This document shows positions 521 through 60,099 of a stretch of DNA of 60,656 bases, piece by piece. How positions within the stretch are numbered: the first letter of the stretch is position 1; each line of letters begins with the position of its first letter. The notes under the pieces are model-generated. The model saw only the letters and a program-made list of their open reading frames with translations. It was not told the DNA's origin and did not search any database. Source of the stretch: a virus (taxonomy: Duplodnaviria; Caudoviricetes); IMG/VR virus record IMGVR_UViG_3300044691_000256, positions 1-60,656 of that record; one strand, written 5' to 3'. A program made the translations under genes and the position numbers.

Positions 521-950
521 TTGTTGCTCCTTGGAGTTTCAGGTTGAATTTCGTTATGTATCGCGCGGCGGCTTCCATGAGGGTGGGGTTATCCCGCCAC
601 TTGGCCAAACCTGAGTTACAGGCCCAGCAAAGAAGGCCGCGATTCGCGTTACGGGTAAGTAACCTCTTGACTGCTTTCTTTGCTTCTGATCTTGTGTGGC
701 CGGTTGCTTCGAAGTGCGGAGGGTCGAGTAAGCTGGTACTGGCAGTCCATTTTCCGGACGGGAGTTTCGACGCTGTTATCCTCTTGCGAACGAATTTGTG
801 ATCGTGATCCACGTGCAAACGCTTGCCTGTAGGCTCTTTGTAGCAGATGGCACAACAACCGTCTTGATCTTGAAGCATCACTTCGTATTCAACCAACGTG
901 ATGTTGTAGACCCGAACCAGCCGGGCGTTTACCTCCTTGTCCGTTGCCAT
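510..950 (-). CDS. Recombination endonuclease VII family protein
   Basis: Q.G.CAIC, LHVDHDH and RGLLC..CN..L motifs. Confidence 0.9.
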   Translation of the reverse strand: MATDKEVNARLVRVYNITLVEYEVMLQDQDGCCAICYKEPTGKRLHVDHDHKFVRKRITASKLPSGKWTASTSLLDPPHFEATGHTRSEAKKAVKRLLTRNANRGLLCWACNSGLAKWRDNPTLMEAAARYITKFNLKLQGATNGK

Positions 951-1014
951 TATTTACCTTTGTGGATGTAACGAGTTGCCCAGATCCAAAGCAGAATGAG
1001 ACTGATGAAGATTG

Positions 1015-1185
1015 CTAATGCCAAGGGCCACCCCTGCCCCAAACGAATTTGCTGGGTATTTCTATCTGCCTTTCAGTGTCGCCATCAAGACAGTCTGGGC
1101 ATATTGGCGGAGGACTGTCCATTTTATGGACAAGGCGGTCAAACACTCTCAGGCAGTTTTCACACTTGTATGTGTAAATGGGCAT
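1015..1185 (-). CDS. FmdB-family zinc ribbon protein (not in ORF track)
   Basis: Translated by hand: MPIYTYKCENC...CPDC...GRGGPWH*, 56 aa. Confidence 0.8.
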   Translation of the reverse strand: MPIYTYKCENCLRVFDRLVHKMDSPPPICPDCLDGDTERQIEIPSKFVWGRGGPWH

Positions 1186-1191
1186 CGCGAC

Positions 1192-1464
1192 CTACTTCTT
1201 GACTGGGGTTTCGGGTTTGGCCGGGGTAGCCGCTTTCTGATTGGCCGCCTGGACCTCTTTGTTGAACTCTGCGATCTCCTGCTGGGTCTTCAGAAAGTCC
1301 TGAAATTCGGTCAAATCGCGGAGCTTGTTGTAGCTGACGTTGTACTTGTTCTGGAGCGCTTCGTAGTGTTTCTGGAACTCTGTCTGCTGGGCCGGGGTGA
1401 GTTGGGCGTAGACGGGAAACGAGAGGATAGAGAGCGTGAGGACTGCGGCGAGTTTTAGCTTCAT
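1192..1464 (-). CDS. Secreted hypothetical protein
   Basis: Sec-type signal peptide (MKLKLAAVL...VYA|Q), helical body. Confidence 0.6.
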   Translation of the reverse strand: MKLKLAAVLTLSILSFPVYAQLTPAQQTEFQKHYEALQNKYNVSYNKLRDLTEFQDFLKTQQEIAEFNKEVQAANQKAATPAKPETPVKK

Positions 1465-1964
1465 TTAGTTTCTCCTAGAAAGTATTTGGCTAGTTCTGGG
1501 TTGTCGTGAATCAAAGTGGTTGTTACGGAAGCAATCTTATCGAATGCCGGATGTGTACCGTATTCTTTGGAGTTGTAGTAGTCGTTGTGAGCCTCATTCG
1601 TTTCGTCGCAGGTGTGTGCGTGGAGCAGTTCGTGGAACACGGTTTCCTGTTGGATGGAATAGTCGAGACCTGATGAAATCCAGATTTGGTGGAGTTCGCA
1701 CGAGGTAATCGCCAACGCATCCATAAATTTCAACTCGACATCATTTTGACCGATCATTATGTTCCATCGCTCCCCGTGGACAATGACTTGTAGTGTTGTT
1801 TTGTTGGGAAGAATCTGCGGATATGGGGTGTGCGGATTCGGCCACGCCGCCAGCACGAGGACACCCGCGACCAAAGAGGTACCAAGACATCCCATCAAGA
1901 ACCCACCCATTCCGTTGATCTTCATACCTTCCTCCGATAAAAAGTAACCTGGCCCACCTGACAC
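1461..1964 (-). CDS. Membrane-anchored HExxH metallopeptidase-like protein
   Basis: N-terminal hydrophobic segment; ETVFHELLHA; start uncertain. Confidence 0.6.
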   Translation of the reverse strand: MSGGPGYFLSEEGMKINGMGGFLMGCLGTSLVAGVLVLAAWPNPHTPYPQILPNKTTLQVIVHGERWNIMIGQNDVELKFMDALAITSCELHQIWISSGLDYSIQQETVFHELLHAHTCDETNEAHNDYYNSKEYGTHPAFDKIASVTTTLIHDNPELAKYFLGETK

Positions 1965-2275
1965 GTTCGTTCACCTTCGAATACCTTGTCCGAGTCCGTC
2001 CAGTCTGTAGCCCCGCCGGTTCTATCTGGTGTCGTGTCTGAGTAGATACCGTCAAGCACGGACAATAAGGACTGGAACTGTGGCTCGCGGGCGTCTGGCC
2101 ACCCCTTGGATTCGTCCAGAAAATGGACAGACTCTTCGTACATCGACTTACCAGAGATAGCCGATAGATTCCGCAGCGCCATCGCCCCGAAGCTCATCCC
2201 TCGGTACTGTTCATTTTTGAGCGACCGCCAGCAAGCCAGAGCGACGACAGCTTTCTCGAAGTCAAGACCTGTCAT
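1922..2275 (-). CDS. SleB/Hydrolase_2-like cell wall hydrolase, possibly degenerate
   Basis: LAL.CWR, D.TGGAT.W and QVG.VTFY pattern. Confidence 0.55.
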   Translation of the reverse strand: MTGLDFEKAVVALACWRSLKNEQYRGMSFGAMALRNLSAISGKSMYEESVHFLDESKGWPDAREPQFQSLLSVLDGIYSDTTPDRTGGATDWTDSDKVFEGERTCQVGQVTFYRRKV

Positions 2276-2884: not shown

Positions 2885-4131
2885 TAGCAGGCGACCTCTT
2901 CTAGTTCGTCCATTTTCTGGACAGGCTTGGTGATGAATAGCGGGACTGCCTTTTGGATTCGCGTATGTGACAGTTCAACGTACTCCGGGTTCAACTCAAT
3001 GCCGATGTAGTTCCGTTCGTTGCTTAGAGCGACCACGCCTGTTGTGCCGCTGCCGCTGAAAGGATCGAGTACCGTGCCACCCTTCGGGCATCCCGCCAAC
3101 ACGCAAGGTTCGATTAGCTTAGTCGGAAAGGTTGCGAAGTGGGCACCTTTGTACGGTGAAGTTGTAACCGTCCACACGCTACGTTTGTTCCGGCCTTTCG
3201 TGGGGTCGCCGTACTGTGTCCTGCCGTCGTGTAGACCCGCTGTTGACCTGTTCCCTTGTTCTACCAAATGTGCAGTCTTGTGCTTCGAGGTACCGGAGTT
3301 GTACGTCCTGTCGGGATAAGTAAAAGGCTCCCGGATCGCGTCGGCATCGTAAAAGTAAGTCTTAGACTTGGACAAGAGAAAGATGTATTCGTGGGATTTA
3401 GTGCATCGGTCGGTTACACTTTCTGGCATTGCGTTGGGTTTCTCCCAAATTATGTCCTGCCTCAAATACCATCCGGCAGATCTCAGCGCAAAAGCCAACA
3501 TCCAAGGAACTCCGACTAAGTCTTTCGGCTTGCATACGCGCACAGAGTCCATCCGAGCAGGAACACTATCAACATCCAAATCGCCATGTTGTACATTTCC
3601 GCCATCGCAAAGGGAACTCCCAAGACTGATATCAGGCATAGCCACCCGCCCGACCGGAACAGAAGCAAATCCACGCCTTTCATTCCCGTAAGACCCACCA
3701 CCACCTTTTCCGCCTCCCGCATATGTATCTCCCATGTTGACCCAAATGGTTCCATCGTTCCGTAGAACCCGCCGTACTTCGCTAAAAACCGAGACCAGAC
3801 GTGCAATAAACTCGTCAGGCGAGGCTTCCAAACCAATCTGGTTATCTACCCTAGACGCCCCGCATTTTCCGCAAAGTTTCTTGTAGCTTGCTTCCTGAAG
3901 ATGACCCTGCGAATCCTTAGAACCGACTAGCGTTGACTTCGCGACTGCTTTTTCCGCATCTACGCGACTCGGAAGAAGATGATCGCATTCCGCAGAACCG
4001 CCAACCCAAGAGGCTGTTCCGTAGTCCCGTAAACCCCAATAGGGTGGGCTAGTCACCACACAGTTCACGGATTCATCAGGCAATGTCCGCAGTTTCTCTA
4101 TTACATCGCCCTGTAAGATTTGATACTCCAC
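2884..4131 (-). CDS. N4/N6 DNA methyltransferase (beta class)
   Basis: TSPPY, LRQDIIW.K, HFATFP and VLDPFSGSGTT. Confidence 0.95.
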   Translation of the reverse strand: MEYQILQGDVIEKLRTLPDESVNCVVTSPPYWGLRDYGTASWVGGSAECDHLLPSRVDAEKAVAKSTLVGSKDSQGHLQEASYKKLCGKCGASRVDNQIGLEASPDEFIARLVSVFSEVRRVLRNDGTIWVNMGDTYAGGGKGGGGSYGNERRGFASVPVGRVAMPDISLGSSLCDGGNVQHGDLDVDSVPARMDSVRVCKPKDLVGVPWMLAFALRSAGWYLRQDIIWEKPNAMPESVTDRCTKSHEYIFLLSKSKTYFYDADAIREPFTYPDRTYNSGTSKHKTAHLVEQGNRSTAGLHDGRTQYGDPTKGRNKRSVWTVTTSPYKGAHFATFPTKLIEPCVLAGCPKGGTVLDPFSGSGTTGVVALSNERNYIGIELNPEYVELSHTRIQKAVPLFITKPVQKMDELEEVAC

Positions 4132-5426: not shown

Positions 5427-5611
5427 TTCTGTAGTACTTCTTTGGATCTAGAGGCCGTAGGGAGAGTCGGTGTCTGGGGGTGCGGGGCGTTTTGGGTTCG
5501 GTTGGCGGGTCGTCGCGGTACGGCTTAAAACTGCCCCCAAGGTCGTGCAACCACATCATCCACAAATTAAAGTTGTCTTGCTTCACTTGTTACCTCTGTC
5601 CATTTTCTGGA

Positions 5612-6280
5612 TTATTTACTGTAAGTACCCAGGAACTCTCTTGCAAATGCCAACAGTACGTCGCGGCGGATCATGTGGTCTGGAAGATTAGGGTCGATTG
5701 GAACCTCTCTCTTCGCGACTTCTGCCGCTTGTTGAATCTCGGCCCACTGGTCGGGTTCGTAGTACGCCCCCCAGTCCCGCCAAACACCTTTTATGTCTTC
5801 TGTCTGCTTGAGTGAATTATACACAATTGTTTTTAATTGCGCAACTGTGACTGTGTCGTCGAGGGCCGAGGCCAGAAGTCCCGGTTCCACGCGGCGTCCT
5901 GACTGCTGGACATAGCGTTTCAGGAGCGAGGCTTTGCTGATTCCCATCGTCTCCAAATCTGCCTGAGATATCTGCGGCAGGAGTTTCTGGGAGATCGCCG
6001 CGAACTCATATACGGCTGATCTCTGGCGGCCTATGCGGGCACAGATAGAGTCTACGAACGCCCCGGAGGACTCGTAGCCCCAGCCGATCCAGCACCGGCC
6101 CTGGATAGCCTTATCAGTCAGAAGCCCCAGCCGCACGTACGACCTAGATAGAGTTTTTTCATGTCTGCCGATTTCGTCCAGAAGTGACTCGACCTCTTCT
6201 TTGAGAACAGAGGCTTGTGACTTCTCTTCAAATCCCCAAGCCTCTATCTCTCCCTGCCCTATATCTAGTAGCTCTGTCAT
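5612..6280 (-). CDS. Hypothetical protein
   Basis: 222 aa ORF within operon. Confidence 0.65.
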   Translation of the reverse strand: MTELLDIGQGEIEAWGFEEKSQASVLKEEVESLLDEIGRHEKTLSRSYVRLGLLTDKAIQGRCWIGWGYESSGAFVDSICARIGRQRSAVYEFAAISQKLLPQISQADLETMGISKASLLKRYVQQSGRRVEPGLLASALDDTVTVAQLKTIVYNSLKQTEDIKGVWRDWGAYYEPDQWAEIQQAAEVAKREVPIDPNLPDHMIRRDVLLAFAREFLGTYSK

Positions 6281-6937: not shown

Positions 6938-7972
6938 CTAACTTGCCAAAACGGCTAGCAACATTCTTTTAGTACCGGCTTCGATCCAGATGGGTTGGCG
7001 GGGTCCGTTCAAACTTATACTTACCGGCCCAGAGATATTTGCGAAGAAGCTGAGTAAGTGATCTATGTTGACCTTAATAGTTGCCGGGGTTGGTTCGAAG
7101 TTCTCATCTGGTTCAAGTTGGACATAGTCTGCTTGATCGGTCGCGGCCCCGGCTAGGTCTGTTACCGTCACAACATTGTCGAGAAAATGGACAGCGATTC
7201 CCGGCTCGCCCTGATCTGACACTAAGGGCCGGACCGTCAACAGGGCGTTCTTGAACATGTCCGCGTCCACCCGATACTTCACCCCGAAAGATTTGGGGAT
7301 GAACGATTGGTAGTTGGGATATTCCCGACTAACGCGGTTTGCGTAAATATCAACGCTATTTGCGTAGAAGTGAAGGTAGCGGTCTGTTGACTCTACTTCT
7401 ACGGTGTCGCCTTCTAGGTTTACCAAGGCTTGGACGGCGGACATGGGAATCGTTAGGTCGAGGACAAAGTATCCTGTACAAACAGTCTTGGCTAGGGCCA
7501 GCCGCGCCCCGTCGGTCCCTGCGGCCTGTAGAACCCCATCCTTCGCCGTCAGCTTGACCACACCCCCAAACTGCTCCGCTATGTTCTTCGAAACCGACAC
7601 CGATGTGTAGGCCAGTAGTGACTTGACCTCTGGTAGAGGAAGGATAGTCGCGTCCTTCGTTGCAGGGGCCACAAACGGCTTTGCTGGCTTTGTCTCCAAC
7701 TTCACTGTGGCCCGCGCCGATTTCAGGACCAACGCCGCATCGTCTAGGTGGATTGCTATCTCCCCGCTCATTCTGGCTACGACTTGGAAAAGTTTGCGTC
7801 CGTCGGTCAAAATTACGAAGGGGTTCCTTGAGACAAAATTTGCTGTCCGCGCCGAGATCGTCAATTCAGGGCTGATACTAGTGATAGTGCCCAACTTCGA
7901 ATCTAGGAGGACATCACCTTTGGCGGACACGGATTTCAGAAGTCTTTTGAGGTCGGGCGCGGAAATTATCAT
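6938..7972 (-). CDS. dnaN: DNA polymerase III beta sliding clamp homolog
   Basis: 344 aa; AGTDGARLA and EYPNYQSFIP clamp motifs. Confidence 0.85.
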   Translation of the reverse strand: MIISAPDLKRLLKSVSAKGDVLLDSKLGTITSISPELTISARTANFVSRNPFVILTDGRKLFQVVARMSGEIAIHLDDAALVLKSARATVKLETKPAKPFVAPATKDATILPLPEVKSLLAYTSVSVSKNIAEQFGGVVKLTAKDGVLQAAGTDGARLALAKTVCTGYFVLDLTIPMSAVQALVNLEGDTVEVESTDRYLHFYANSVDIYANRVSREYPNYQSFIPKSFGVKYRVDADMFKNALLTVRPLVSDQGEPGIAVHFLDNVVTVTDLAGAATDQADYVQLEPDENFEPTPATIKVNIDHLLSFFANISGPVSISLNGPRQPIWIEAGTKRMLLAVLAS

Positions 7973-8349: not shown

Positions 8350-10202
8350 TCTGGTTCTCCTGTATGTACGTAATCCAACGACATGAACGTTGCAAATTCT
8401 CCGACGAACATCAGCTCCGCCTGAGCAAGCCCCGCGCCTTTGTTCCGGGCCTTCAACAAAACCACTTTGGTCTTAGCTTCCAAATTGTCCCGCGCCGGAA
8501 CCCCAGAATCGTCAGATTTGACCACCTCGCGGTGCAAAGCCAGCAGCCCGTCCACATCGTCTGATGCCGTGCCAGACCCCTTCAAGTCCTGAATCTGAAC
8601 CACCTTGCCCCGCCTGGTGTTGTCCGCCTTCTTTGGTGCGCCAAGAGCAATGACAATGCATTTGTGCGTCTGAGCGATAGATTTTAGCCGCTTGTTTACT
8701 ACTGCTTGAAGAGACACTTCGTTACTTGCGCTCCGAACCATAATCGCCACATTGTCAATTACAAGAATGTCAATGTTAAGCCGCTTGATCGCAGCTTCCA
8801 TCAAGTCGAGGGCGGCCTCGGCCTCTAGCATCGGATCGTACCCGACGTAGTAGCCCACCTCGCCCATCTGCTCTGCGGCCTCTATAAAATCTTCCCGCGT
8901 GAGGTGGTTGCGGTGGCGTTTCAGTATGTGAGCCGTTGTAATAGTCGCAAACAGCGTGGGGTCCAGCTCGCACTGCCAATTAAGAACACGACGAGCGAAC
9001 GTAACCGCGTTGAATACACTCGTGTTCATCTGAAATGCAGTTTTGCCTGTGCCTGTCTGTGTTGCGAAGATACTAAGAACATCGCCAGGGACGATAATGA
9101 GCATGTCATCAACGTCTTTCCATCCGAATCTGAGCCTGTCCGGACGGTCGGCCTGTGGGCCTTTTCCTCCAGATAACATCACACCCTGAAGGGAGTAGAC
9201 ATCTTTCATCGGCTGGGCCAAAGCTTGCCCGATAAGTTTGTCCATTTTCTGGACGAAGCCGTTCTTGTCCTTTAGATACAACTCGTTGGCATCTTTTGAA
9301 TCACCCCAGTCTACGAGAAATGTGCGTTCCCCTAATTGGTTCCAGAGCTTGGTCATAGCCGCCCTGCCTGGATCATCATTATCCCCAGCCAGAACCACAC
9401 GGTTGGCGGACATCAACCTATCTTTTTCAGTCGGCCCTAGAGAGGTGCTTGCCGATGCCAAACTCACGGATCGAAACCCGGCCTGCTCAAGCGCCATTAC
9501 ATCCAGTTCACCCTCACATACCAACACGTCCGAGAATGGATCTATCGTGTCCGAGTTGTAAAGTGCGGTAGCCATCCCAGCCTGTTTGGAGAACGCCTTG
9601 CGCCCCGCCACAACTGACCTGTACTTCAGACTGACGACTTTGTTGTCCACGAGACAGGGAAAAACCAGCCACCCCCTATCCGAAATATCAAGGTTCTTGT
9701 CGTCGTCGCGCATCTTCAAGGTCTGTCGGAACCCCGTATGCAGCCTCTGAGCAGTCTCCAGAGATATCCCCCGGCCCGCCAGCCATGCCTGAGCTTCCTT
9801 ACTGTTAGCCAGATTGCGTTCGTAGACTCCGTATTCTTGGAGACTGAATACCTTGTAGCTCTTTGCGGCATCTTGCACCGCTGGCTTAAAGACCCTGTCG
9901 ACCGCTGCTGCCTGTTCTGCGTATTTGCTTGGCCCCACGCCCACTATGTTTTTCACCTTGTCCACTGCTTCACGAAACGAAATACCGTCTGCCTTCTCTA
10001 CGACCTGGATTACGTTGAATGACCCACAGCCAGCAAAGCAGTGACTGAGCATGTCTTTCTCGTACACAACGAAGGAGGAGACATTGTCCTTATGGAACGG
10101 GCATGACCCCATCCACTTATTCCCTTCCTTCCTGAGCTTTGTGTAGAGGCTGTAGACTTTCAGGACCGAGGGTGAATGCTTGAGGCTGTCTAGGTCTTCC
10201 AT
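8346..10202 (-). CDS. Bifunctional primase-helicase (CHC2 zinc finger, TOPRIM, DnaB-like)
   Basis: CPFH..HCFAGC; CEGELD and GDND TOPRIM; TGTGKT Walker A, LVID, DLKGSG; start MEDL. Confidence 0.92.
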   Translation of the reverse strand: MEDLDSLKHSPSVLKVYSLYTKLRKEGNKWMGSCPFHKDNVSSFVVYEKDMLSHCFAGCGSFNVIQVVEKADGISFREAVDKVKNIVGVGPSKYAEQAAAVDRVFKPAVQDAAKSYKVFSLQEYGVYERNLANSKEAQAWLAGRGISLETAQRLHTGFRQTLKMRDDDKNLDISDRGWLVFPCLVDNKVVSLKYRSVVAGRKAFSKQAGMATALYNSDTIDPFSDVLVCEGELDVMALEQAGFRSVSLASASTSLGPTEKDRLMSANRVVLAGDNDDPGRAAMTKLWNQLGERTFLVDWGDSKDANELYLKDKNGFVQKMDKLIGQALAQPMKDVYSLQGVMLSGGKGPQADRPDRLRFGWKDVDDMLIIVPGDVLSIFATQTGTGKTAFQMNTSVFNAVTFARRVLNWQCELDPTLFATITTAHILKRHRNHLTREDFIEAAEQMGEVGYYVGYDPMLEAEAALDLMEAAIKRLNIDILVIDNVAIMVRSASNEVSLQAVVNKRLKSIAQTHKCIVIALGAPKKADNTRRGKVVQIQDLKGSGTASDDVDGLLALHREVVKSDDSGVPARDNLEAKTKVVLLKARNKGAGLAQAELMFVGEFATFMSLDYVHTGEPE

Positions 10203-11238
10203 CAACTTCTCTCCAGTCCCAAAGCATCTTCTAGCGCGTGGCCCTCTTCGGTTGCTATCAGGTCGACACACCCAGCCAGCGCGAACCGGGCGGCGGCGTC
10301 CAGTTTCTGGAATCGAATGACGAGTTTGTCATACTCAGTTGCACCCACCCAATATCCTGGGGGAGTGTCGTTCCACGGATGCCTTATTACCTTGTCTGGA
10401 TCAAACATTGTCATATCTCTCCAACGGGTTCTTCATCATCAACTGCGTTATCATTTCTCCCGAATAATCCGTGGTCAGTGTGTACAGGTCACCGTTGCCA
10501 TCTACGCCGATTATCTGGTCCCGCCAAGACATAAGCTGAATAAAGCGGTGCGGATAAGAATAGTCTCCGTTGAGGCCGAGCCAGTTGCGGATTATTCTCT
10601 TGAGACCTTTCATTTCCAATCTCCTTGACCATAATTTCTGAACTCAAATCGATTGCGTTTTCCCACCCGTAGTGAACCATAAACTTCATCCCGCGCAGTT
10701 CTAAAAACCTACAGGCGAAGAGTATGTCCTCTTGGAATCGTTTTTGGTAGTACCGGCAGTACTGTTGGTAGTCCATTCATTCCTTAAGGCGCGGACATGT
10801 TTAGGGCGGTTTGTCCAGAAAATGGACGGTTTACAAATCGTAAGAACCGGGCGGGACGATCTCCCCGCAATCGAGGCAGATGTTGACGTTGTGTTCTTCT
10901 GGACTTGGCCGGGCATAGATTGTCATTCCGTGGTAGCAGGGGTGTTTCGGCTCGCCAATTTTCGTCTCGACCCACACAATTTTGGTTGTGAAATACGATG
11001 TTACTTTACTCACCGGCCCTCCTTTGTCCAGAAAATGGATTAGTTAGTCGTTGTAATTTTCGCCATACATGACACATCCAACCGAAGCCAAAACCGTCCA
11101 GCCCCAGAAAGATAGGTCTGTAAGGTGCAGTAAATAACTGTGACCAAATCCGACAAAAACCAGCAGCATTCCAATAAATCTCAGAAGGGTCTTCATGTTT
11201 CTCCTATGTCCGCTCGGGACGATTTCCTATGTGTCTTG

Positions 11239-12007: not shown

Positions 12008-12294
12008 CAGTTACTCCTTGTCGAACAGTCCTTTGCTTGGTTTGGGGTACAGCACCGTGCCGATCAGCCCGTAAGCCTCGGCGATGTCATCCCAGTTACC
12101 GTGAGAGCACAGCTTTTGTGCCCGTTCTAGTGTTTTCCGATCCTCTGGACTCAAAATCGTCGTCATTTTTCTCCTTGTCCATTTTCTGGACGCGGCCACA
12201 GCCCTCCAGGACGCGCCGCTAATTTCGTAACCATGTCCACGTACCTTTTCAACCCTTCCAACGCAGCCAGCAAAGATCCAGCACCCAAATCCGG

Positions 12295-28452: not shown

Positions 28453-28512
28453 CTGTTTAGTAAACAAAATTTGTCCAGAAAATGGACGAACCGAAGGAGA
28501 AAGGAATATCAA

Positions 28513-54315: not shown

Positions 54316-54374
54316 CCCGATATTCTAGCACGGCGCGTCCATTTTCTGGATAAAAGTTCTTCTAAAGGAATCTC

Positions 54375-54642: not shown

Positions 54643-56583
54643 ATGGCTGTAACTTTTGACAACCTAGTCCACCAGTATGAAGACGCTTGGCGGATACCGT
54701 CTAACGAGCTTTTCGATTATCTCCTCCTGAGCTACGAGGATTTGATCAACGAAGCCAAGCTGGGCATGGACCGAATCCCCAACTCCCCTCTTGGCCGAGA
54801 AGTACGCCGTCGTTGCAAGCAAGACCTCTTTTTTTTGGCTAGGTATTTCACGTGGGTCACGAACCCAGCTTTTACGGGTGTCGGAGTTGAGAATAATCTA
54901 ATTGACGAGGCGCATTACAAAGTTGTCTGCGACCTGTTTGTCGAAAAAGACGACCGCCGTGCGATTGTAGATCAGTCAAAATTTAAGACCCGCCTCTTGC
55001 TGTGGCCCCGTTCGGGCATGAAGTCGACCATCGACCACGTCGACACGGTTCAGTGGATCTTGAATTTCCCCGAGATCCGCATCCTGTACCTCACGGCCAG
55101 CGAAGACCTCGCCGAAGGTTTCGTTCAGGAGATCAAGGGTCACTTTGTTATCCAGCAAGACAATCCAAGCTGGATGGTATTGTTCTTCCCGGAGTTTTGT
55201 GTTGCTGAAAAAGACTTGGGTGCGGCAAACACCTTTACCTGTCCTGTGTGGGCGGCCAAACAAAGAAAAAGAAAAGAACCCACGGTATTCGCCGGATCGG
55301 TCGGGAAAAACAAATCGGGTTGGCACTACGAACTCATCAAGGCCGACGACGCTGTATCGGACAAGAATTCTGAAAGTTCCGAGCAGTGCGAAACGATTTC
55401 GAAGAAGTTGTACCTTGCCGAGAAACTGCTTGTCCTCGGAGGAGTGTACATTGACTACGTCGGCACACGATATTCGCCAGAAGACCACTACGGAAAAATC
55501 CTGGAGAAGAACCTGGGTGATCCTGACATCAAAGTTACGGAGGGTCAGAACTGGACTCTGTGGACGAACGAGACTACAGGCGTCAAGATTCTTGTCGGGG
55601 TAGCAATCAAGATAAAACTAGAGGTTGTCCAGAAACTGGAAGCCGAAGGTAAGCAAGCGACTTTTCAAACCGCCGGTGCGGATGGATGCAGTTATCTCCT
55701 CCCGCACATCATGTCTTACAACTGGCTGATGCAGGACTTGGCCAAGGACGAAAAGAGTTTTGAAGGACAGCGTAACCAGAACCCCCGAGTCACTTCTTCG
55801 ATTGTCTTTGATCGAATTACTTTGCTCAAACAGACTCGCCCTTGGTCTGAGATGCCGGTTCAAGGTCCGGTTTCACAGGTGTGGGACTTTGCCTTCAGCT
55901 CTAAGAAGGGCAGAGACTACTCCACCGCCTGTTCGATTATGTGGGGCGAGGACAAAGAAAAAAAGGTCTCGGTCGGATTCGTTCAGCAGATCGTTCGCGA
56001 CAAGTTCAATCACTACACTCTGGCGCAGGCAATCGTCGATCTTGCGATACGATACAGACCTTTTGTTATCGGAGTAGAAGATGCGGCGGGTTCTCGGTTT
56101 CTCGAACCCACGATCCTGGCGGCGGCCATCAAGACCAAAGACGCGCACATCATCCAACTGTGCAGCCACATAGACTGGATAACTCCGGATAATCAGAAGG
56201 ATGCAAAGAAAGTCCGCATGGCTTCCCTGTATCCCTGGCTCAAAGAGGATCGTCTCCGCTTTCTCAATACGTGCATGGCCCCGAACAGCATGGATGTCCT
56301 GTACGGAGAGTTCGAAAAGTGTCTCACCAGCCACCACCACGACGATATCCCCGACGTTCTTTCCATGCAGCCGCGCTACGCCCCCCGAGCAACACAGGCG
56401 ATTGTAGAGAACAACGAAGAGATGATGAGTAGGTCAGACACTCTCTGGAACATGATCTACACCGAGGGTACCGACCAATTCGGCAGAGTAGGCTACGGCC
56501 CGGCACCAGTCCCCTTCAACCCAGAGCAGGAAGACATGCTAGAGGATGAGCCGAACGTCGATAGTTATTTTCAGTTTAGCTAG
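54643..56583 (+). CDS. terL: Terminase large subunit
   Basis: PRSGMKST Walker A, G.HY...KADD, VGTRY..ED.YG, WDFA...DYS and HDDIPD. Confidence 0.92.
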   Translation: MAVTFDNLVHQYEDAWRIPSNELFDYLLLSYEDLINEAKLGMDRIPNSPLGREVRRRCKQDLFFLARYFTWVTNPAFTGVGVENNLIDEAHYKVVCDLFVEKDDRRAIVDQSKFKTRLLLWPRSGMKSTIDHVDTVQWILNFPEIRILYLTASEDLAEGFVQEIKGHFVIQQDNPSWMVLFFPEFCVAEKDLGAANTFTCPVWAAKQRKRKEPTVFAGSVGKNKSGWHYELIKADDAVSDKNSESSEQCETISKKLYLAEKLLVLGGVYIDYVGTRYSPEDHYGKILEKNLGDPDIKVTEGQNWTLWTNETTGVKILVGVAIKIKLEVVQKLEAEGKQATFQTAGADGCSYLLPHIMSYNWLMQDLAKDEKSFEGQRNQNPRVTSSIVFDRITLLKQTRPWSEMPVQGPVSQVWDFAFSSKKGRDYSTACSIMWGEDKEKKVSVGFVQQIVRDKFNHYTLAQAIVDLAIRYRPFVIGVEDAAGSRFLEPTILAAAIKTKDAHIIQLCSHIDWITPDNQKDAKKVRMASLYPWLKEDRLRFLNTCMAPNSMDVLYGEFEKCLTSHHHDDIPDVLSMQPRYAPRATQAIVENNEEMMSRSDTLWNMIYTEGTDQFGRVGYGPAPVPFNPEQEDMLEDEPNVDSYFQFS

Positions 56584-56785: not shown

Positions 56786-56948
56786 GAAATTTAATAAGTG
56801 TGGTGGCACCTGATCGGGTAAGTAGTTTTCCACCAGGGGCAGAATAAGCGCCCCAAAGTTTCGTGGCCGAGAAGTGGCCACGGTAGTCCATTTTCTGGAC
56901 AAAACATAAATTCACTAAATTCCCAATTAAAGTACTAAGAAAGCATCC

Positions 56949-57224: not shown

Positions 57225-57251
57225 TCTCACCCTCCAAACAACAAGGCTGAG

Positions 57252-59321
57252 ATGATCATAGAAGCGCAGGTCCACGATACTGCTTTACCTATCACCCCGG
57301 AAGAGGCGAAGGCGGCACTGTCTACCGGATTATTCGCTGACGACCCTGCCCTCCGGTTGGTGGTTCAGGATACCGAACGCGCTGAATCCCACGAGATGAC
57401 GAAGTCGTGGATTTTGGGGTGGGACTCTGCCCGCCAGCTATACCAGTCGCCCCGCCGCCCCCGCTACTGGAGTGGTGGAACTACCGAAGCGGCCAGCATC
57501 AGCTTTTTCACGGTAGCTACGGCGGTCAACTCTCTGGTCCCCCAGATCATCGGTGGACTCTTTGCGGACAATCCTCCGTTCATGATCGAGGAGCACTCCG
57601 GAACGACCGACCAGGAAGCCCAGGCTATCGGCGGGGTACTCGCGTACCAGTTGGAAGATATCAACTTCCGCGAAGAACTTCGGCTGGGTGTTACGAACGC
57701 ATGTCTGTTCGGCACCACGATCTTCAAATGGGGCTGGGAGACTTACACCAAAGACCGGAAGATTTACAAGCGCAAAGCACCCGCAGTCACGATGCCCGCG
57801 CAGATCCCCGGAACTCCCGATATCCAGATAATGGACGACGACCTCGATGTAGAGATCGTCAAGGAAGTAATCGACCGGCCAACATTTGAGCACATAGTCA
57901 ACCTGAGACAAGTATTGGTTGACCCCAGCCTGAACGTACCGGACATTCGTAAAGCAAAGTACGTCATCCACCGGATGTTCATGACCTACCGCGATCTTGA
58001 GAAGCTTCGAGATCGGCCCGGCTTCGAGATTCCGTCCAAAGAGACAGTCCTCGAATGGTTCCTGCCGCCGGTTGAAGAGGCAGAGGGCGCGCCGCAAGAG
58101 CAGGGTGCTACAAACCCGCTGTACGACGCAAAAGCCGAACCGCGCTACGTCGATACTACTGTCAATCCCTTCGAACAGCCCTTAGAGGTTTTGGAGCGCT
58201 GGGATAATGGAAGCTACATCGTCGTACTGCAAAAGAAATTGACCATCTGCAACACCGAGAATCCCTACGGTAAGATCCCGTTCCTCTCGGTCGGCTGGTG
58301 GGACGTGCCGGAAGCGTTCTGGGGCCTCGGCCTTGGAAGAACAATCGGCAACGAACAGGAATTGCAAAAGGGTATCACGGATATCGCGCTCGACCAGGCG
58401 ACCCTCAACCTCAACGGCGTGTATGTCCGCGTTAGAGGAAAAAACATCCCGACCCAGAGCATACGAATTGCACCGGGCAAGATTATTGAAGTTGACGACA
58501 AAGACGGGTTCAAACCGCTTGATCGTCAGCCTGCCGTACCAGAAGCACAACAATTTCTGGCTATGTCGCAGGCGCGAGCTGAACAGGTATCGGGAGCAAA
58601 CGAAGCTTCCTCACAAGGTATCGCGGGCCAGTCAGGTCACTCCAACATGGCCCGGAGTTCAGCAGGCGCTCAGATTCTTGCCTCGGGCGCAAGCAACAGA
58701 GTTGAGGACTTCCTTGAGAAGTTGGCAGGACAAGTCCTCGTTCCGTTCCTCTACGAGATGTATGAAATGGATCGCGGGATGCTTCCGTTATCTCAACTGC
58801 GGTACATCCTCAACGATGAGTTGCAGCATGAGTTCGTCAAGGATGGTGGAGACTTAGTAGACCTGTTGAACGCCAAGGTGAAGTTCAGTATTCTCGCCGG
58901 GTCCAAGATGCAGGTCAAGCGGACAATGGCCCAGAGCCTCCCGCTGCTCACGCAGTACCTGATGAACCAGCAGACTCAAGAACAGTTGGCCTTGCAGAAT
59001 AAGAAGGTCGATGTTCTAGAGATATCCAGGATGTATTTTCGAATGAGCGGATGGACCACGGGCAATGACATTATTGTCGACATGACTCCGCAAGATCAGC
59101 AGAGACTGCAAGCCATGAATCCTGGGGCCGCAGCGCAGGCTAAACAGCAGGCACAGTTGCAGGGTCAATCTCAACTCCAGCAGCAGAAGTTTGAAAATGA
59201 ACAGCGCATTCTTGATCAAAGGAACACCGCGAAAGCCGCCGACGAAGTATTGCGACAAGTATTCGAAAAAGAGGCCACACCTCTAGCAGTCAACGGCGAA
59301 CCTAGCGCGACAGGACTCTAA
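57252..59321 (+). CDS. Portal protein (P22-like)
   Basis: 689 aa after terL; FGT.I.K.GW, .VDP, NPYGKIPF, FWG.G and Q-rich tail. Confidence 0.9.
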   Translation: MIIEAQVHDTALPITPEEAKAALSTGLFADDPALRLVVQDTERAESHEMTKSWILGWDSARQLYQSPRRPRYWSGGTTEAASISFFTVATAVNSLVPQIIGGLFADNPPFMIEEHSGTTDQEAQAIGGVLAYQLEDINFREELRLGVTNACLFGTTIFKWGWETYTKDRKIYKRKAPAVTMPAQIPGTPDIQIMDDDLDVEIVKEVIDRPTFEHIVNLRQVLVDPSLNVPDIRKAKYVIHRMFMTYRDLEKLRDRPGFEIPSKETVLEWFLPPVEEAEGAPQEQGATNPLYDAKAEPRYVDTTVNPFEQPLEVLERWDNGSYIVVLQKKLTICNTENPYGKIPFLSVGWWDVPEAFWGLGLGRTIGNEQELQKGITDIALDQATLNLNGVYVRVRGKNIPTQSIRIAPGKIIEVDDKDGFKPLDRQPAVPEAQQFLAMSQARAEQVSGANEASSQGIAGQSGHSNMARSSAGAQILASGASNRVEDFLEKLAGQVLVPFLYEMYEMDRGMLPLSQLRYILNDELQHEFVKDGGDLVDLLNAKVKFSILAGSKMQVKRTMAQSLPLLTQYLMNQQTQEQLALQNKKVDVLEISRMYFRMSGWTTGNDIIVDMTPQDQQRLQAMNPGAAAQAKQQAQLQGQSQLQQQKFENEQRILDQRNTAKAADEVLRQVFEKEATPLAVNGEPSATGL

Positions 59322-59327
59322 AGACTT

Positions 59328-59696
59328 ATGCAACCAGATGATAACGGTTTACTAAACGATATCGAGCAACTAAACGGCGCACCACTAGACGACGCAGACT
59401 ATGACGACGTTGCCCAGTGGCAGCGTGGGTTGGAACTACGAGGCGTAGTAACTACCCCGGCTTGGGAGATCATCCTCAACTCCCTCCAGTCTTACGCTGA
59501 TAAGGCCGCCGCAGCACTTCTTCAATTGCCCCCCGGCGACGAGCGAGTGATGTACGCACATGCCGCAGCCTCTGCCGCCGCGCAGATCAACACCAACTTT
59601 AGACTAGATGTCCAATCCGCGATAGAAGCGGCCAGCCAAGTCCCCGAAGTTCTCAAGCGAGGTCTCAGAAATGACATTACCCGAAGCGAGGGATAA
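59328..59696 (+). CDS. Hypothetical protein following portal
   Basis: L...PAW.II motif typical of post-portal genes. Confidence 0.65.
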   Translation: MQPDDNGLLNDIEQLNGAPLDDADYDDVAQWQRGLELRGVVTTPAWEIILNSLQSYADKAAAALLQLPPGDERVMYAHAAASAAAQINTNFRLDVQSAIEAASQVPEVLKRGLRNDITRSEG

Positions 59697-60099
59697 GGCT
59701 AGAGAAAAGGGATTGACCACGTACTTCGGCTACATGCACGGCCAACAAGTAATCACCTACGAGCTGGGCTTTTTAGAACCGGCGGACAAATGTAACGTAG
59801 GTCTGTTGTGCGCGATGCCCGACGGATACTTCCGCTGGGTGGCGATGGGCCGAGGTAATAGCTGGGAACAAGCCTTCACAGATGTAGATTCACGAATCAA
59901 CTGAACCGTCCAGAAAATGGACAAAAATCTCCGCTCCGCCCGGATTGGCGAAGGACAAAGTAAACATGGCAACTAACATAGACGAACTACGAACATTGGC
60001 ACAAGCACTGCTCGACGATACGCTCTCGGGATCGGCCAAAACCTCGGCAATCCGCACAATAAGTAAATATATGCTCGATGCCATTCGGGGAGGCAAATA

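Follow-up and report, generated by a model that had tools for sequence, protein, structure and literature searches.

A Dispersed 15-bp Palindrome in a Soil Phage: Putative Sites for a Dimeric Helix-Turn-Helix Protein

Introduction

Why does one 15-bp palindromic word recur along a phage genome, in genes as well as between them? The window, by which we mean the whole stretch of DNA analysed (60,656 nucleotides), covers about 57% of a soil-metagenome phage genome of roughly 106 kb. An earlier note on this DNA had read the word as genome-wide sites for a dimeric protein. This is still the best-supported reading, given the arrays in O-like genes, the conservation in a phage family and the amino-acid cost within genes. 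We put at about one in two the probability that the 15-mer copies are scattered sites on duplex DNA at which a dimeric helix-turn-helix protein binds.

Results and Discussion

Copies of the Motif and Excess over Chance

We counted GTCCAGAAAATGGAC in the 60.7-kb window and found 22 exact copies, versus 0.00 in 100 dinucleotide shuffles. At up to two mismatches there were 50 copies (shuffle mean 0.22, maximum 2; Table 1). The 13-mer TCCAGAAAATGGA matched at 39 places, 18 of them forward and 21 reverse, and its reversed control pattern at 0. These matches are the 39 starts that the earlier note listed as exact-core copies, 22 being exact for the full 15-mer, and its nine variants are all among the 50; its total of about 48 was sound but missed two sites, at 40463 and 57822.

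The 15-mer has 5-bp inverted arms, GTCCA and TGGAC, whose centres are one helical turn apart, with an A-tract spacer between them. Its logo, yy[G/A]TCC[A]GAAAATGGAC[A/G][A/G], includes two flanking positions on each side, with little information beyond. Site density was estimated from 46 window sites, defined as matches to NTCCRGAAAATGGAC with at most one mismatch. The values per kb were 0.98 (1-28500), 0.20 (28501-38400), 1.25 (38401-48000) and 0.32 (48001-60656). The recombinase segment falls in 28.5-38.4 kb, where the density of 0.20 compares with 0.98-1.25 in other non-structural parts. An inverted repeat with the motif copies at 29356 and 34072 encloses this 4.7-kb segment.

The earlier note raised the matter of raw reads. 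The motif also occurs in assembled public data: Logan contigs from a single soil-metagenome DNA run span window positions 10001-20000 at a word depth of ~80-160, with 0 indels and 15 single-letter differences only. Some loose contig ends coincide with motif copies (e.g., 10828 and 18493), and the end at 10828 runs on with the letters found after the copy at 42203. This run may be the source sample of the window, and it therefore lends the motif no independent support.

Table 1. Motif copies and other features in the window. Mismatches are to the 15-mer; RBS, ribosome-binding site.
Feature	Position	Strand	Mismatches	Context
Motif	745..759	−	1	GTCCGGAAAATGGAC; endonuclease VII gene 510-950, sense, frame 2
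Motif	1117..1131	−	1	intergenic
Motif	2114..2128	+	exact	antisense in ORF 1922-2275, read as VHFLD
Motif	2908..2922	−	exact	methyltransferase gene 2884-4131, last codons (VQKMD); next start codon 23-24 nt on
Motif	5598..5612	−	1	adjoins stop codon of gene 5612-6280; GTG start and RBS 11 nt downstream
Candidate reader protein P0113	5612..6280	−		222 aa, all-helical; helix-turn-helix ~residues 72-100
Motif	7178..7192	+	1	antisense in sliding-clamp gene 6938-7972
Motif	9240..9254	−	exact	mid primase-helicase gene, sense frame 0 (VQKMD); other residues in orthologues
Motif	10298..10312	−	2	primase-helicase start 27 nt downstream
Motif	10813..10827	+	exact	intergenic
Motif	11026..11040	+	1	intergenic
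Motif	11498..11512	−	1	phosphoesterase gene 3' end (IQKMD); next start 11 nt on
Motif	12177..12191	−	exact	AAGGAG directly after, ATG 10 nt on
Putative replication initiator	12295..13407	−		YdaU/DUF1376 N-terminal domain; window phage's own
Motif	12517..12531	−	1	within YdaU/DUF1376 initiator gene (FQKMD)
Tandem array	12950..12998			~four 11-12-bp units TGCTCTGCTAA; within DUF1376 gene
Motif	13461..13475	−	exact	PD-(D/E)XK nuclease gene 3' end; DUF1376 gene start 54 nt downstream
Motif	14633..14647	−	2	second methyltransferase gene, last codons; next start 20-21 nt on
Motif	17931..17945	−	exact	helicase gene, sense frame 0
Motif	18478..18492	−	exact	intergenic
Motif	19853..19867	−	1	RecT-like gene, sense frame 0
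Motif	20731..20745	+	1	intergenic; RBS and ATG 20 nt downstream
Motif	20966..20980	+	exact	ORF 20876-21295, sense frame 0
Motif	21412..21426	+	1	ORF 21288-21596, sense frame 1
Motif	22088..22102	+	2	intergenic
Motif	22524..22538	−	1	clamp-loader gene, antisense
Motif	23457..23471	+	1	ORF 23381-23845, sense frame 1
Motif	24274..24288	−	1	intergenic or antisense in ORF 23938-24312
Motif	24456..24470	−	1	ORF 24309-24563, sense frame 0
Motif	26831..26845	−	exact	mid DNA polymerase I gene, sense frame 0 (VQKMD)
Motif	27653..27667	−	exact	DNA polymerase I gene, sense frame 0
Motif	28473..28487	+	exact	3' of sigma-70-like promoter 28424-28452; RBS and ATG (28513) of gene 28513-29238 follow
Motif	29356..29370	−	1	left arm, inner end, of recombinase-segment inverted repeat
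Motif	34072..34086	+	exact	right arm, inner end, of same repeat
Motif	38489..38503	−	exact	small ORF, sense frame 0
Motif	39504..39518	+	1	-35 hexamer of sigma-70-like (12/12) minus-strand promoter (39494 to 39467) 10 bp downstream
Motif	39839..39853	+	exact	small ORF, antisense
Motif	40463..40477	+	2
Motif	41208..41222	+	exact	ORF 40546-41376, antisense
Motif	41952..41966	+	1	ORF 41705-42106, antisense
Motif	42203..42217	+	exact	intergenic; extended flank GAACTAGA common to copies 2908 and 41952
Motif	43724..43738	+	exact	intergenic
Motif	44026..44040	−	1	intergenic; start codon 34 nt on
Motif	45246..45260	−	exact	RBS and ATG 15 nt downstream
Motif	45985..45999	+	1	intergenic
Motif	47135..47149	+	exact	intergenic
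Motif	47405..47419	−	2	intergenic
Motif	47942..47956	−	1	intergenic; TTGACA hexamer 13 nt downstream
Motif	54337..54351	−	1	intergenic; upstream of opposite-strand 54375-54638
Motif	55627..55641	+	2	large terminase gene
Motif	56886..56900	−	exact	intergenic
Motif	57822..57836	+	2	portal gene
Motif	59908..59922	+	exact	intergenic

Placement of the Sites

An intergenic excess was found: 90 of 183 sites were within the 14-24% of each genome without called genes (crude gene finder; binomial p-values per genome from 4 × 10−3 to 2 × 10−9). Sixty of the 183 preceded a ribosome-binding site and start codon by 5-25 nt, versus 15.8 for random positions (standard deviation 3.8, maximum 27, 200 draws; SD-led starts of ORFs of at least 40 aa). 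These 60 are split 35 versus 25 in orientation, as expected of a symmetric dimer. The local gene strand was followed by 117 of the 183 sites (p-value 2 × 10−4), and genic sites were sense in 67 of 93. This bias is not explained by a purely symmetric reader protein; coding constraints might account for it. The likeness to stoperators drawn in the earlier note is weaker than claimed, because only that share of the sites follows the gene strand and those at gene starts point both ways.

The motif had also been described as lying on promoters. Around the three best sigma-70-like promoters it stands in three differing relative positions or not nearby, and the clustering is instead just upstream of ribosome-binding sites. 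Because the sites have no fixed tie to promoters, it is only their placement that suggests a transcriptional role. Sites are also written into coding sequence with amino-acid changes. We examined seven VQKMD/FQKMD sites in the polymerase, primase-helicase, helicase, nuclease, DUF1376 and RecT genes; all align without gaps to orthologues, which have different residues (VRKGD or LTAVD for the DNA polymerase I copy at 26831..26845). Judged from these alignments, the in-gene sites arose by amino-acid-changing substitutions, the orthologues being without them, and selection on them acts at the DNA level. The low density in 28.5-38.4 kb counts towards the same selection.

Distribution in Relatives and Bacteria

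At least four diverged relatives carry the motif in 24-65 copies each (PolA 41-53% identical, GC content 39-52%). G001, G002 and G003 (106-109 kb; GC 39.5-50%; PolA again 41-53% identical to that of the window) have 48, 24 and 65 sites, respectively; applied to the window, this count gives 46. The copies of G001 are mostly GTCCGGAAAATGGAC, and nearly all of the 36 copies in G315 have the spacer GATAA. By sequence comparison, the spacer variants are lineage-specific across this diverged phage family, and such concerted change fits a reader protein encoded by each phage.

The earlier note had pointed to related phages, in which the motif proves family-wide, and to a generic repeat of host DNA; in the 301 Acidobacteriota genomes sampled the motif is scarce and does not behave as a repeat. 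Among the IMG/VR loci with at least two sites, 30 of 34 have proteins in common with the window's phage family. Prophage silencing, segregation, self-marking and titration are hypothetical roles put forward in the earlier note; a search of 401 genomes turned up no prophage of this family.

Arrays in Small Elements and the Origin-Iteron Reading

Six small, unrelated phages or satellites (L044, L096, L105, L320, L321 and L322) contain the same 15-mer in tight arrays (3-6 copies, spacing 17-54 bp). In 6/6 of them an O-like winged-helix ORF holds the array, internally or at its 3' end. The ORF of L044 matches Pfam Phage_rep_O (E-value 2.3 × 10−9, 38.1 bits, cut-off 28.7), and an AT-rich stretch comes after its array. 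As described in PMC7466680, each iteron of the lambda origin is an imperfect inverted repeat to which O dimers bind, and the iterons sit midway through gene O, by an AT-rich tract. The small elements have the same arrangement, with iterons in or beside an O-like gene and, in L044, an AT-rich tract. Because the tight arrays occupy or adjoin a lambda-O-like initiator gene, the 15-mer is an origin iteron in these elements. Arrays of this word with lambda-O-like initiator genes in six small elements are new in this analysis, and they support the protein-binding nature of the motif.

In the large phages the YdaU/DUF1376 initiator gene has 11-bp repeats unlike the 15-mer. That the 15-mer is also the window phage's own origin iteron is countered by its own putative DUF1376 initiator; the TGCTCTGCTAA units in that gene are probably its origin iterons. 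Among six-frame ORFs of G000-G003, a 3-sequence HMM of the O-like domain gave noise only (E-value at least 2.9) and a 6-sequence HMM gave nothing at E-values up to 0.1. Profile comparison found no relation of the O-like alignment to the DUF1376 family (probability 0.2) or to the family of P0113 (probability 0.1).

Candidate Reader Protein

P0113 is our candidate for the dimeric reader of the 15-mer in the large phages. It has homologues in G001-G003 and in G315 (locus L279), with 215 cluster representatives. In its AlphaFold2 model (mean pLDDT 93.3), residues 43-160 were aligned to the ParB-family DNA-binding domain 6s6h_B (Z 5.9, rmsd 3.9, 98 aligned) and to KorB 8qa8_A (Z 5.7, rmsd 3.3, 95 aligned), a weak likeness below the tool's level of meaning. 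The top row of this comparison was an unrelated ORC chain (Z 6.1), and the best Foldseek match had E 0.27, none reaching 0.001.

P0113 is predicted to form a homodimer (score 0.72, best control 0.00), with at least 95% of contacts agreeing between runs and partner pLDDT of at least 80. Among proteins solved as pairs of one chain, 20 of 30 attained that mark, and among those solved as single chains 1 of 23 did; these counts are rough only, a custom alignment having been used. Two distant homologues, 27-28% identical, are in 20.6-kb loci (L323 and L324) without the motif at up to two mismatches, and none was found in the whole 93-kb record G314, which contains L324. G003 and G315 differ in spacer (GAAAA and GATAA, respectively) but hardly in the helix-turn-helix region of P0113, which therefore does not track the spacer variant.

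Of the readers put forward in the earlier note, those at 28041-28220, 28513-29238 and 21288-21596 are not supported: they have no homologue in the three motif-bearing relatives. The sigma-like protein at 4135-4770 does have a similar protein in two relatives, but at only 22-29% identity.

Proposed Mechanism and Comparison with Known Systems

In the mechanism we propose, the operator-like 15-mer would be read on duplex DNA by a dimeric (winged-)helix-turn-helix protein. In this phage family its sites are spread over the whole ~106-kb genome, preferring short gaps just 5' of ribosome-binding sites, and are put into coding sequence where needed. A phage-encoded dimer, possibly P0113, would occupy the sites in large phages, and this occupancy may act genome-wide upon the phage's own DNA. 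Gene expression might thereby be damped or timed at gene starts, via roadblock or occlusion, which can be likened to L5 stoperators, P1 C1 operators or KorB. Alternatively, occupancy might organise and coat the phage genome.

The dispersed-palindrome pattern is already known from a few other phages, where its role is putative. The nearest published analogue is a repeat of 17 bp in Cluster O mycobacteriophages, for which the authors, in section 8 of PMC4351075, consider a transcriptional role "unlikely".

Copy Number, Consensus and Assembly Support

We scanned the window for the 15-mer, in which 5-bp inverted arms (GTCCA and TGGAC) enclose the asymmetric spacer GAAAA. GTCCAGAAAATGGAC occurred in 22 exact copies in the 60,656 bases and in none of 100 dinucleotide-preserving shuffles. 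With up to two mismatches, the 15-mer was found 50 times against a shuffle mean of 0.22. The 13-mer core matched at 39 places (18 forward and 21 reverse), and the same letters read backwards gave 0 matches. All 48 motif positions listed in the earlier note were confirmed by the mismatch-tolerant scan, which added two weak copies at 40463 and 57822. The consensus of the aligned copies is yy[G/A]TCCAGAAAATGGAC[A/G][A/G], with little information outside the two flanking positions on each side, and the logo showed that the loop is as conserved as the stem. The closest pair of window sites lies 182 bp apart.

Logan contigs of one public soil-metagenome run, which may be the source sample, cover positions 10001–20000 without indels; this soil DNA run was the only public run matched over that interval, and no RNA run was among the matches. 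Copies of the word break k-mer assemblies, and some loose ends of the Logan contigs coincide with copies, for example at 10828 and 18493. Two joints in these contigs (window 10799–11227 and 10178–10622) skip 427 and 443 bases. The 427-base joint, whose depth is high (88.5), starts some 14 bp upstream of the copy at 10813. Such joints could be assembly artefacts at the repeat or deletion variants in the population.

The Phage Family and Conservation of the Word

The CheckV completeness of the window record is 57%. Its gene content, as determined by PHROG and Pfam scans, is summarized in the table together with the other features of the window. A megablast search of window 25874–33797 against 50,697 phage records gave no match, and the best matches of the window DNA polymerase I (PolA) were siphophage polymerases with about 38% identity.

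Coordinates and strands of the window features considered in this analysis
Feature	Position	Strand	Remarks
Replication module	0.5–28 kb	−	I: endonuclease VII, two N6/N4 DNA methyltransferases, sigma-region-4 protein, sliding clamp, primase-helicase, phosphoesterase; II: YdaU/DUF1376 protein, PD-(D/E)XK nuclease, helicase, SSB, RecT-like protein, clamp loader, DNA polymerase I (PHROG/Pfam)
Recombinase segment	29.4–34.1 kb		two tyrosine recombinases and HNH gene (PHROG/Pfam)
Small genes	38–48 kb	−	without assigned function
Lysis and structural genes	from 48 kb		transglycosylase-like, SprT-like, large terminase, portal (PHROG/Pfam)
Homing-type nuclease genes	510–950; 4649–5038; 6281–6928; 25028–25762; 31242–31811; 51197–51949		endonuclease VII, HNH
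Paralogous N6/N4 DNA methyltransferases	2884–4131; 14609–15907		the motif closes both genes, in one and the same frame (KPVQKMDELE, NPVREMDELE)
Sigma-like factor	4135–4770		sigma-70 region 4
P0113	5612–6280	−	222 aa, candidate reader
YdaU/DUF1376 gene	12295–13407	−	likely initiator
11-bp tandem array	12950–12998		about four units, in the DUF1376 gene
Sigma-70-like promoter	28424–28452	+	10 of 12 matches; site downstream, before ribosome-binding site
Sigma-70-like promoter	39494–39467	−	12 of 12 matches; site 10 bp upstream of −35 hexamer
Sigma-70-like promoter	11268–11239	−	12 of 12 matches; no site within 200 bp
Sigma-70-like promoter	27967–27939	−	10 of 12 matches
Imperfect inverted repeat, about 65 bp	29303–29369; 34073–34131		16 bp perfect, then 43 nt at 74%
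Tyrosine recombinase of 4.7-kb segment	29925–31046	+	segment also holds HNH endonuclease and small ORFs
Tyrosine recombinase of 4.7-kb segment	32715–33797	−	

Three diverged relatives were compared with the window phage: G001 (109 kb, GC content 39.5%), G002 (106.5 kb, GC content 44.9%, with terminal repeats and rated 100% complete), and G003 (105.8 kb, GC content 49.7%, rated 98% complete, with an SU10-type portal). A replication and structural core is common to the four phages at 25–58% identity (PolA, 41–53%), and RecT-like annealing proteins are encoded across the family. Using one rule (NTCCRGAAAATGGAC, up to one mismatch), we found 46 sites in the window, 48 in G001, 24 in G002, and 65 in G003, and these 183 sites were pooled. 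The word drifts by lineage. G001 carries mostly GTCCGGAAAATGGAC plus a form with a GTAAA spacer, and G315, a 93-kb record, has 36 copies with the spacer GATAA in nearly all of them. A whole-record search showed that the 15-mer is absent from G314, a more distant 93-kb record.

The exact 15-mer was found in at least 115 IMG/VR stretches. Among the matches listed, 34 of the 115 carried at least two sites, and 30 of these 34 encode proteins related to the window phage; the word is accordingly a sharp marker for fragments of this family in metagenomes. The 81 single-site loci among the matches listed included 68 unrelated to the window phage, which are probably chance matches.

Some other features of these genomes were observed. 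G003 has a second over-represented word, a 13–16-mer with GCTGGTGG (CGCTGGTGGCCGA and overlapping forms), in about 20 copies genome-wide, and it is absent from the top k-mers of the window. The portal and C5 methyltransferase of G003 (L245:15551-18697 and L248:7353-9197) carry Hint and LAGLIDADG domains, which suggests inteins in both. PolA appears split in G001, and a UvrD-like helicase appears split in G003. In both window methyltransferases, the Pfam domain (221 positions) is spread over about 370–390 residues, which indicates a large insertion in each.

Placement, Orientation and Coding Imprint

Ninety of the 183 sites were located in the 14–24% of sequence left uncalled by a crude gene finder (per-genome binomial p-values from 4 × 10−3 to 2 × 10−9 in the four genomes). 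Sixty sites lay 5–25 nt from an SD-led start of at least 40 codons, compared with 15.8 for random positions (sd 3.8, maximum 27, 200 draws). Among these start-proximal sites, the GAAAA strand pointed toward the gene in 35 and away from it in 25 (p-value 0.25). By crude gene calls, 117 of all sites were co-oriented with the local gene strand and 66 were opposed to it (p-value 2 × 10−4); the window alone gave 28 of 46. This bias was driven mostly by the genic sites (67 sense versus 26 antisense). In the window, the plus-strand sites at 39.5–43.7 kb form a block against minus-strand ORFs.

The sense genic copies are mostly in one frame, which reads V-Q-K-M-D (15 of 20 in the window). We compared six core proteins with orthologues that lack the sites, and found that the sites substitute unrelated residues without gaps. 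Thus, selection acts on the nucleotides. The replication module is the region with the densest sites (0.98 per kb).

In the best-supported account, to which we give a probability of about one half, a dimeric phage protein uses the word as a dispersed operator that tolerates either orientation and is located mainly at gene starts. Occupancy of the sites would block or time expression, or would organise the DNA.

A further arrangement was seen in G001 at about 34–70 kb (L257–L259), where a run of minus-strand copies lies within a region of plus-strand genes. In these copies, the GGAC side is followed by a conserved stretch (AT..GCAGGATTA-like), and on the opposite side a ribosome-binding site and a start codon are found 11–23 nt away.

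Origin Arrays in Other Elements

The same 15-mer forms tight arrays in other mobile elements. In L044, a 41-kb phage, six copies 21–45 bp apart lie inside a gene with an N-terminal Pfam Phage_rep_O match (E 2.3 × 10−9), and an AT-rich stretch follows the array. In L096 and L105, arrays of three to four copies are found at the 3' end of homologous winged-helix ORFs. A pattern scan of IMG/VR for two close copies gave five stretches, namely L044, L105, and the new L320, L321, and L322, and each of the three new arrays is beside an O-like ORF (E 1 × 10−16 to 1 × 10−22). An O-like domain therefore accompanies six of the six arrays found. In phage lambda, the iterons are imperfect inverted repeats in the middle of gene O, bound by O dimers and next to an AT-rich tract (PMC7466680). 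The constant company of an O-like domain and the lambda-type arrangement indicate that the word is a true target, as duplex DNA, of a dimeric winged-helix protein.

We searched for an O-like domain in the six-frame ORFs of the window and G001–G003 (two of them 98–100% complete), and obtained HMM noise only (E 2.9 or more). For the same ORFs, a second O-like HMM found nothing at E up to 0.1 and Pfam Phage_rep_O gave no match. A profile comparison of the O-like alignment with the DUF1376 and P0113 families was empty.

The most interesting alternative to the dimeric-operator account, although an unlikely one, places the reader outside the phage: O-like initiators encoded by satellites or temperate phages that share its hosts would bind the sites. 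The sites would then be decoys of the phage, or a competitor's handle against it. As decoys, the 24–65 copies, multiplied by the copy number of the phage genome, would sequester or handcuff the competitor's initiator and stall the replication of the competitor. The O-like proteins of other elements are the only readers that can be assigned to the exact word, in all six arrays, and the large phages, without a detectable O-like domain, have a different initiator with different repeats. Three of the array-bearing loci have a satellite-like appearance: a tyrosine recombinase is encoded in L096, L105, and L322, an AlpA-type regulator in L105, and a capsid gene in L096 and L105. In addition, ectopic copies of ori-lambda arrest lambda replication (PMC4488673).

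However, no IMG/VR arrays were found for the lineage variants (0 stretches each for the GATAA spacer and the GTCCGG arm). Arrays can mix several spacers (GAAAA, GAAAT, GAAAC, GAAAG) within a single array, whereas each large phage is nearly uniform (the window logo; G315), which points to a different, stricter reader. The placement next to start codons is not needed by decoys. Finally, L105 has a dataset number in common with a contig of the window family (L009/L040/L067), but such sharing was found for only one of the six array elements. Readings of the sites as promoters, replication sites, recombination motifs, or host repeats are weaker still.

A Candidate Reader

P0113 is the remaining conserved protein of the replication arm without an assigned function, with homologues in G001–G003 and in L279, a locus of G315. 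It has 215 cluster representatives in public data. Its confident model is all-helical (pLDDT 93.3), with a helix-turn-helix at about residues 72–100. Residues 43–160 weakly resemble the DNA-binding domains of ParB, KorB, Spo0J, VirB, and SopB (weak fold matches 8qa8, 1r71, and 6s6h), with Z of 4.5–5.9, below the tool's meaningful level. Foldseek gave E of 0.27–1.6 against ParB-type domains and none at 0.001 or better, and a look-up in the ESM Atlas gave the same ParB-type lead. By sequence, there were 0 matches to solved structures at E up to 1, and the Pfam scan of the window ORFs gave no match for this protein. The model lacks an N-terminal ParB (CTPase) domain, and we saw no ParA partner.

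The two-copy model of P0113 scored 0.72 against 0.00 for the best control. That score was reached by 20 of 30 proteins solved as one-chain pairs and by 1 of 23 solved as single chains, counts that are only a rough benchmark here since P0113 was run with an alignment of our own. The two-copy runs had at least 95% contact agreement and a partner pLDDT of at least 80. The predicted interface consists of the long N-terminal helix and the C-terminal helices, which would leave the helix-turn-helix free. Two observations stand against P0113 as the reader: its distant homologues occur in loci and records without the word, including the only two distant loci found in an IMG/VR scan of the family (8-row alignment), and its recognition region shows no difference between lineages with the GAAAA spacer and those with GATAA.

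The product of 28513–29238, which the earlier note had put forward as a candidate, dropped out. It has no Pfam or PHROG match, no homologue in G001–G003, and no profile link to the P0113 family.

A Possible RNA Hairpin

The word could also work in the transcript, as a 5–6-bp hairpin just 5' of the ribosome-binding site that affects mRNA stability, processing, or translation; we regard this as quite improbable. The word with its usual flanks folds at −8.1 kcal/mol (z −4.4) and the reverse orientation at −7.2 kcal/mol, so a hairpin forms either way. The 60 sites located 5–25 nt before a start codon and the sense orientation of 67 of the 93 genic sites agree with such a role, as does the commonest variant, an A to G change at arm position 5, by which pairing is retained as G-U on the GAAAA strand (64 of the 183 sites). 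However, 34 sites have a disrupted outer pair (A-C or other), and there are no compensatory double changes beyond a single site; covariation gives no support, and this test is uninformative because the stem hardly varies. It is also difficult to reconcile a hairpin with a loop conserved as much as the stem and with 66 sites antisense to local genes, and the use of the identical word as a duplex-DNA iteron elsewhere would be left as a coincidence.

Possible Replication-Linked Sites

The DUF1376 protein is likely the initiator of the window phage. The name YdaU was given by JGI to homologues of this protein, and YdaU is the prophage Rac counterpart of O. The window gene contains a tandem array of TGCTCTGCTAA units with an 11-bp period, just after the conserved N-terminal domain. 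The G003 gene (L248, about 6470–6545) has five CTCAGCGGAGA units and one inverted unit after the same domain, and in many other DUF1376 loci similar repeated 11-mers (AGCAGAGCAGA, AGAAGAGAAGA) rank first among the words. These 11-bp arrays are probably origins inside the initiator gene. Of 41 other phage loci whose DUF1376 homologues are 32–56% identical in the N-domain, 40 had no site at up to two mismatches, or a single weak one. The own arrays of these genes and the loci lacking the 15-mer together indicate that the 15-mer is not the origin iteron of the window phage. For the same two reasons, the DUF1376 N-domain was rejected as the reader.

A replication protein of the phage could still use the dispersed sites, as many secondary origins, as points where the replisome is loaded, or as polar barriers to the fork. 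This is very doubtful. The word is an origin iteron in other elements, and the sites are densest in the replication module. One co-oriented copy lies in every DUF1376 gene of the window and G001–G003 (4 of 4), but one copy per 1.1-kb gene is about the background density. Moreover, the dispersed sites form no tight arrays, even the closest pair being 182 bp apart, and have no adjacent AT-rich tract, and both the 11-bp arrays and the 40 DUF1376 loci speak against this role.

Recombination

A recombination boundary motif has been proposed for the indel-flanking repeats of Cluster O mycobacteriophages, and recombination between repeats is reported for them (PMC4351075). Applied here, the short intergenic words would promote exchange, insertion, and loss of gene cassettes. 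The imperfect inverted repeat listed in the table brackets a 4.7-kb segment with two recombinase genes, and each repeat arm has a motif copy as its inner end. This segment is a possible invertible or mobile cassette. The wider region (28.5–38.4 kb) is poor in motif copies. The inverted site pair with its approximately 45 bases of 74% complementary flank, the 8 further bases common to the copies at 2908, 41952, and 42203, and the RecT-like proteins of the family are in line with a recombination motif. However, 15 bp is short for homologous exchange, and the sites in conserved genes arose by point substitution and not by junction formation. Recombination would then be a by-product of the sites and not their selected function, and the chance that it explains them is slight.

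Promoters

The three strongest sigma-70-like promoters of the window have no common relation to the sites. The four near-consensus sequences listed in the table suggest a host with canonical TTGACA/TATAAT promoters, and likely mark early transcription units. In most 20-kb blocks, scans for terminator-like and sigma-70-like elements gave counts no higher than the mean of the shuffles.

We also considered the word as the promoter of the phage-encoded sigma-like factor, with the spacer (GAAAAT or GATAAT) as a −10-like element and fixed bases around it. The spacer and the next T resemble TATAAT, most closely in G315 (GATAAT), purines directly follow the site, and a sigma-70 region-4 protein is encoded in the window, G002, and G003. 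However, this protein is only 22–29% identical among relatives that share the word, and BLAST found none in G001. A promoter is also hard to reconcile with both orientations among the start-proximal sites (35 versus 25), the 66 of 183 sites that oppose the local gene strand, the lack of a second element at a fixed distance in the logo, and a leader of only about 10 nt where many sites abut the ribosome-binding site. Since the iteron arrays would also be left without explanation, we consider this reading highly improbable, and the same evidence makes the sigma-like protein an unlikely reader. A small sigma-region-4 ORF of L044 showed only a generic helix-turn-helix likeness to window ORFs.

Host Genomes

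The earlier note had raised the question of whether the motif is equally frequent in host DNA. In 301 genomes of Acidobacteriota, the phylum of the metagenome-assembled genome (MAG) G005, the 14-mer TCCRGAAAATGGAC occurred 56 times in 46 genomes, compared with 22 times for the reversed control. The 46 include one unpublished genome, G062, on which only this tally rests. The maximum per genome was 4, and five genomes chosen from exact GTDB matches had 1–3 copies each. The word is thus not at phage-like density in the Acidobacteriota genomes sampled, although the true host may differ from these. The GTDB-wide scan gave, among the matches listed, scattered single matches in many phyla; we estimated from the collection size that about a thousand chance matches are expected. 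No O-like ORF was found in 12 Acidobacteriota loci or in at least 120 GTDB loci, each with at most two nearby sites.

To our knowledge, no uptake, Chi, or REP-like signal is as long as 15 conserved bases. The density of the word in the window, about 1 per 1.2 kb, resembles that of uptake sequences, but the low copy numbers in the bacterial genomes sampled and the scattered single matches, as chance predicts, make a generic repeat common to phage and host (an uptake sequence, Chi-like site, or REP-like element) scarcely credible.

The window encodes two tyrosine recombinases. A search for its portal in 401 genomes, all of the phylum of G005, gave no match. The four copies in G005, an Acidobacteriales MAG, lie in a low-GC island of about 12 kb (L275, about 2500–15800; contig 6, 192.5–205.8 kb), with a GC content of 47–52% against 58–60% in the flanks. 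The island carries genes for a tyrosine integrase, a serine resolvase, a CHC2 primase, and an AAA_25 helicase, and it is an integrated element that uses the word without an array. In one GTDB bin labelled Oscillospiraceae, three short contigs (L140, L204, and L227) each have the exact 15-mer, two copies in L227. These may be fragments of a phage of the window family binned with a bacterial genome.

Significance

Among dispersed phage repeats, we know of a mechanism only for stoperators. Dyad repeats of this dispersed kind are known from a few phage groups, namely Cluster O, T1-like, Cluster A, and Cluster K phages (PMC4351075, PMC6550527, PMC11447400, PMC3203893). Our literature searches, which were aimed at analogues and not at the motif itself, found no paper on the motif or the phage family.

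Three aspects are new: the conservation is deep and accompanied by concerted variants, the coding sequences are strongly imprinted, and the word is identical to an O-type iteron of other elements. In these uncultured soil phages it has persisted through about 50% protein divergence and a 13-point range of GC content, and it rewrites residues in the genes of the polymerase, primase, and helicase. Its use elsewhere as an O-type origin iteron gives a first handle on the type of protein that reads such words, and a short list of candidate readers can be offered. A reader encoded by the phage itself would make the system a compact model of how a large, lytic-looking phage exerts genome-wide control at its gene starts. 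A reader from competing elements would instead point to a new form of conflict among mobile elements, with a built-in decoy against satellites and prophages.

Comparison with Known Systems

The KorB operators of RK2, the ParB parS sites, and the Noc sites are scattered palindromes of 13–16 bp, with dimeric helix-turn-helix readers, that serve the global regulation or organisation of DNA. The word of the window phage is a scattered palindrome like them, but differs in its asymmetric conserved spacer. In phage P1, which has a genome of about 94 kb and a plasmid-prophage lifestyle, the operators of the C1 repressor are likewise dispersed and number more than a dozen. Dispersal over a phage genome is common to both, whereas the P1 site is an asymmetric 17-mer, has fewer copies, and is found at promoters.

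Conserved short words upstream of many start codons are also known from other phages. The T1-like phage TLS has 21-nt intergenic direct repeats about 76 nt upstream of starts (PMC11447400), and Cluster K mycobacteriophages have start-associated sequences that overlap the translation-start region (PMC3203893). In contrast to our word, those of TLS and Cluster K lack symmetry, keep almost always to one orientation, and lie at other distances from the starts.

The stoperators of L5-type (Cluster A) phages resemble our sites in their tens of genome-wide copies, in short gaps between genes and in genes, and in a consensus that varies between related phages. According to PMC6550527 and PMC9283540, they are asymmetric, read by a monomeric immunity repressor, and mostly in one orientation to transcription. 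The earlier note had proposed stoperators as the established analogue. This analogy holds for the tens of dispersed copies (50 in the window and 24–65 in the relatives), but the one-orientation rule does not carry over (117 of 183 sites co-oriented; start-proximal sites 35:25), and the arms of our word are palindromic. No repressor-annotated match was found among 82 and 86 window ORFs by PHROG and Pfam, the window being 57% of the genome.

Like the word, the lambda iterons are imperfect inverted repeats with an A-rich centre (unit length 15–19 bp), and their reader is a dimeric winged-helix initiator (PMC7466680). A tight lambda-type array of four to six units in the initiator gene with an AT-rich tract is not present in the window but occurs in L044, and an array beside an O-like ORF was found in L096, L105, L320, L321, and L322. 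Unlike those of lambda, the window copies are dispersed, at least 182 bp apart, without an AT-rich tract or an O-like gene, and the initiator gene has other repeats.

The nearest published case is the 17-bp repeat of the Cluster O mycobacteriophages (Corndog and relatives; PMC4351075), TGTTCGGNNNCCGAACA, which has 34 copies and mostly TTT/AAA in the centre. It occurs between genes, near their starts, and inside them, and shows a slight orientation preference. The host genomes named in that paper lack it, and the authors interpret the copies as binding sites of a dimeric regulator with an unclear consequence. The two words agree in having more than 30 dispersed copies, inverted arms, an A/T-rich asymmetric spacer, mixed intergenic, 5'-proximal, and intragenic positions, and a weak orientation preference. 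In addition, our word is scarce in the bacterial genomes sampled, and the Cluster O repeat is absent from the hosts named. Their sequences and geometry differ, with 5-bp arms and a 5-bp spacer here against 7-bp arms and a 3-bp spacer in Cluster O. In addition, identity with an origin iteron in other elements is not reported for Cluster O. Unlike the Cluster O repeat, our word belongs to an unrelated lineage of about 106 kb, shows deeper conservation (PolA 41–53%) and lineage-specific spacer variants, and leaves a heavy imprint inside the core replication genes of the family.
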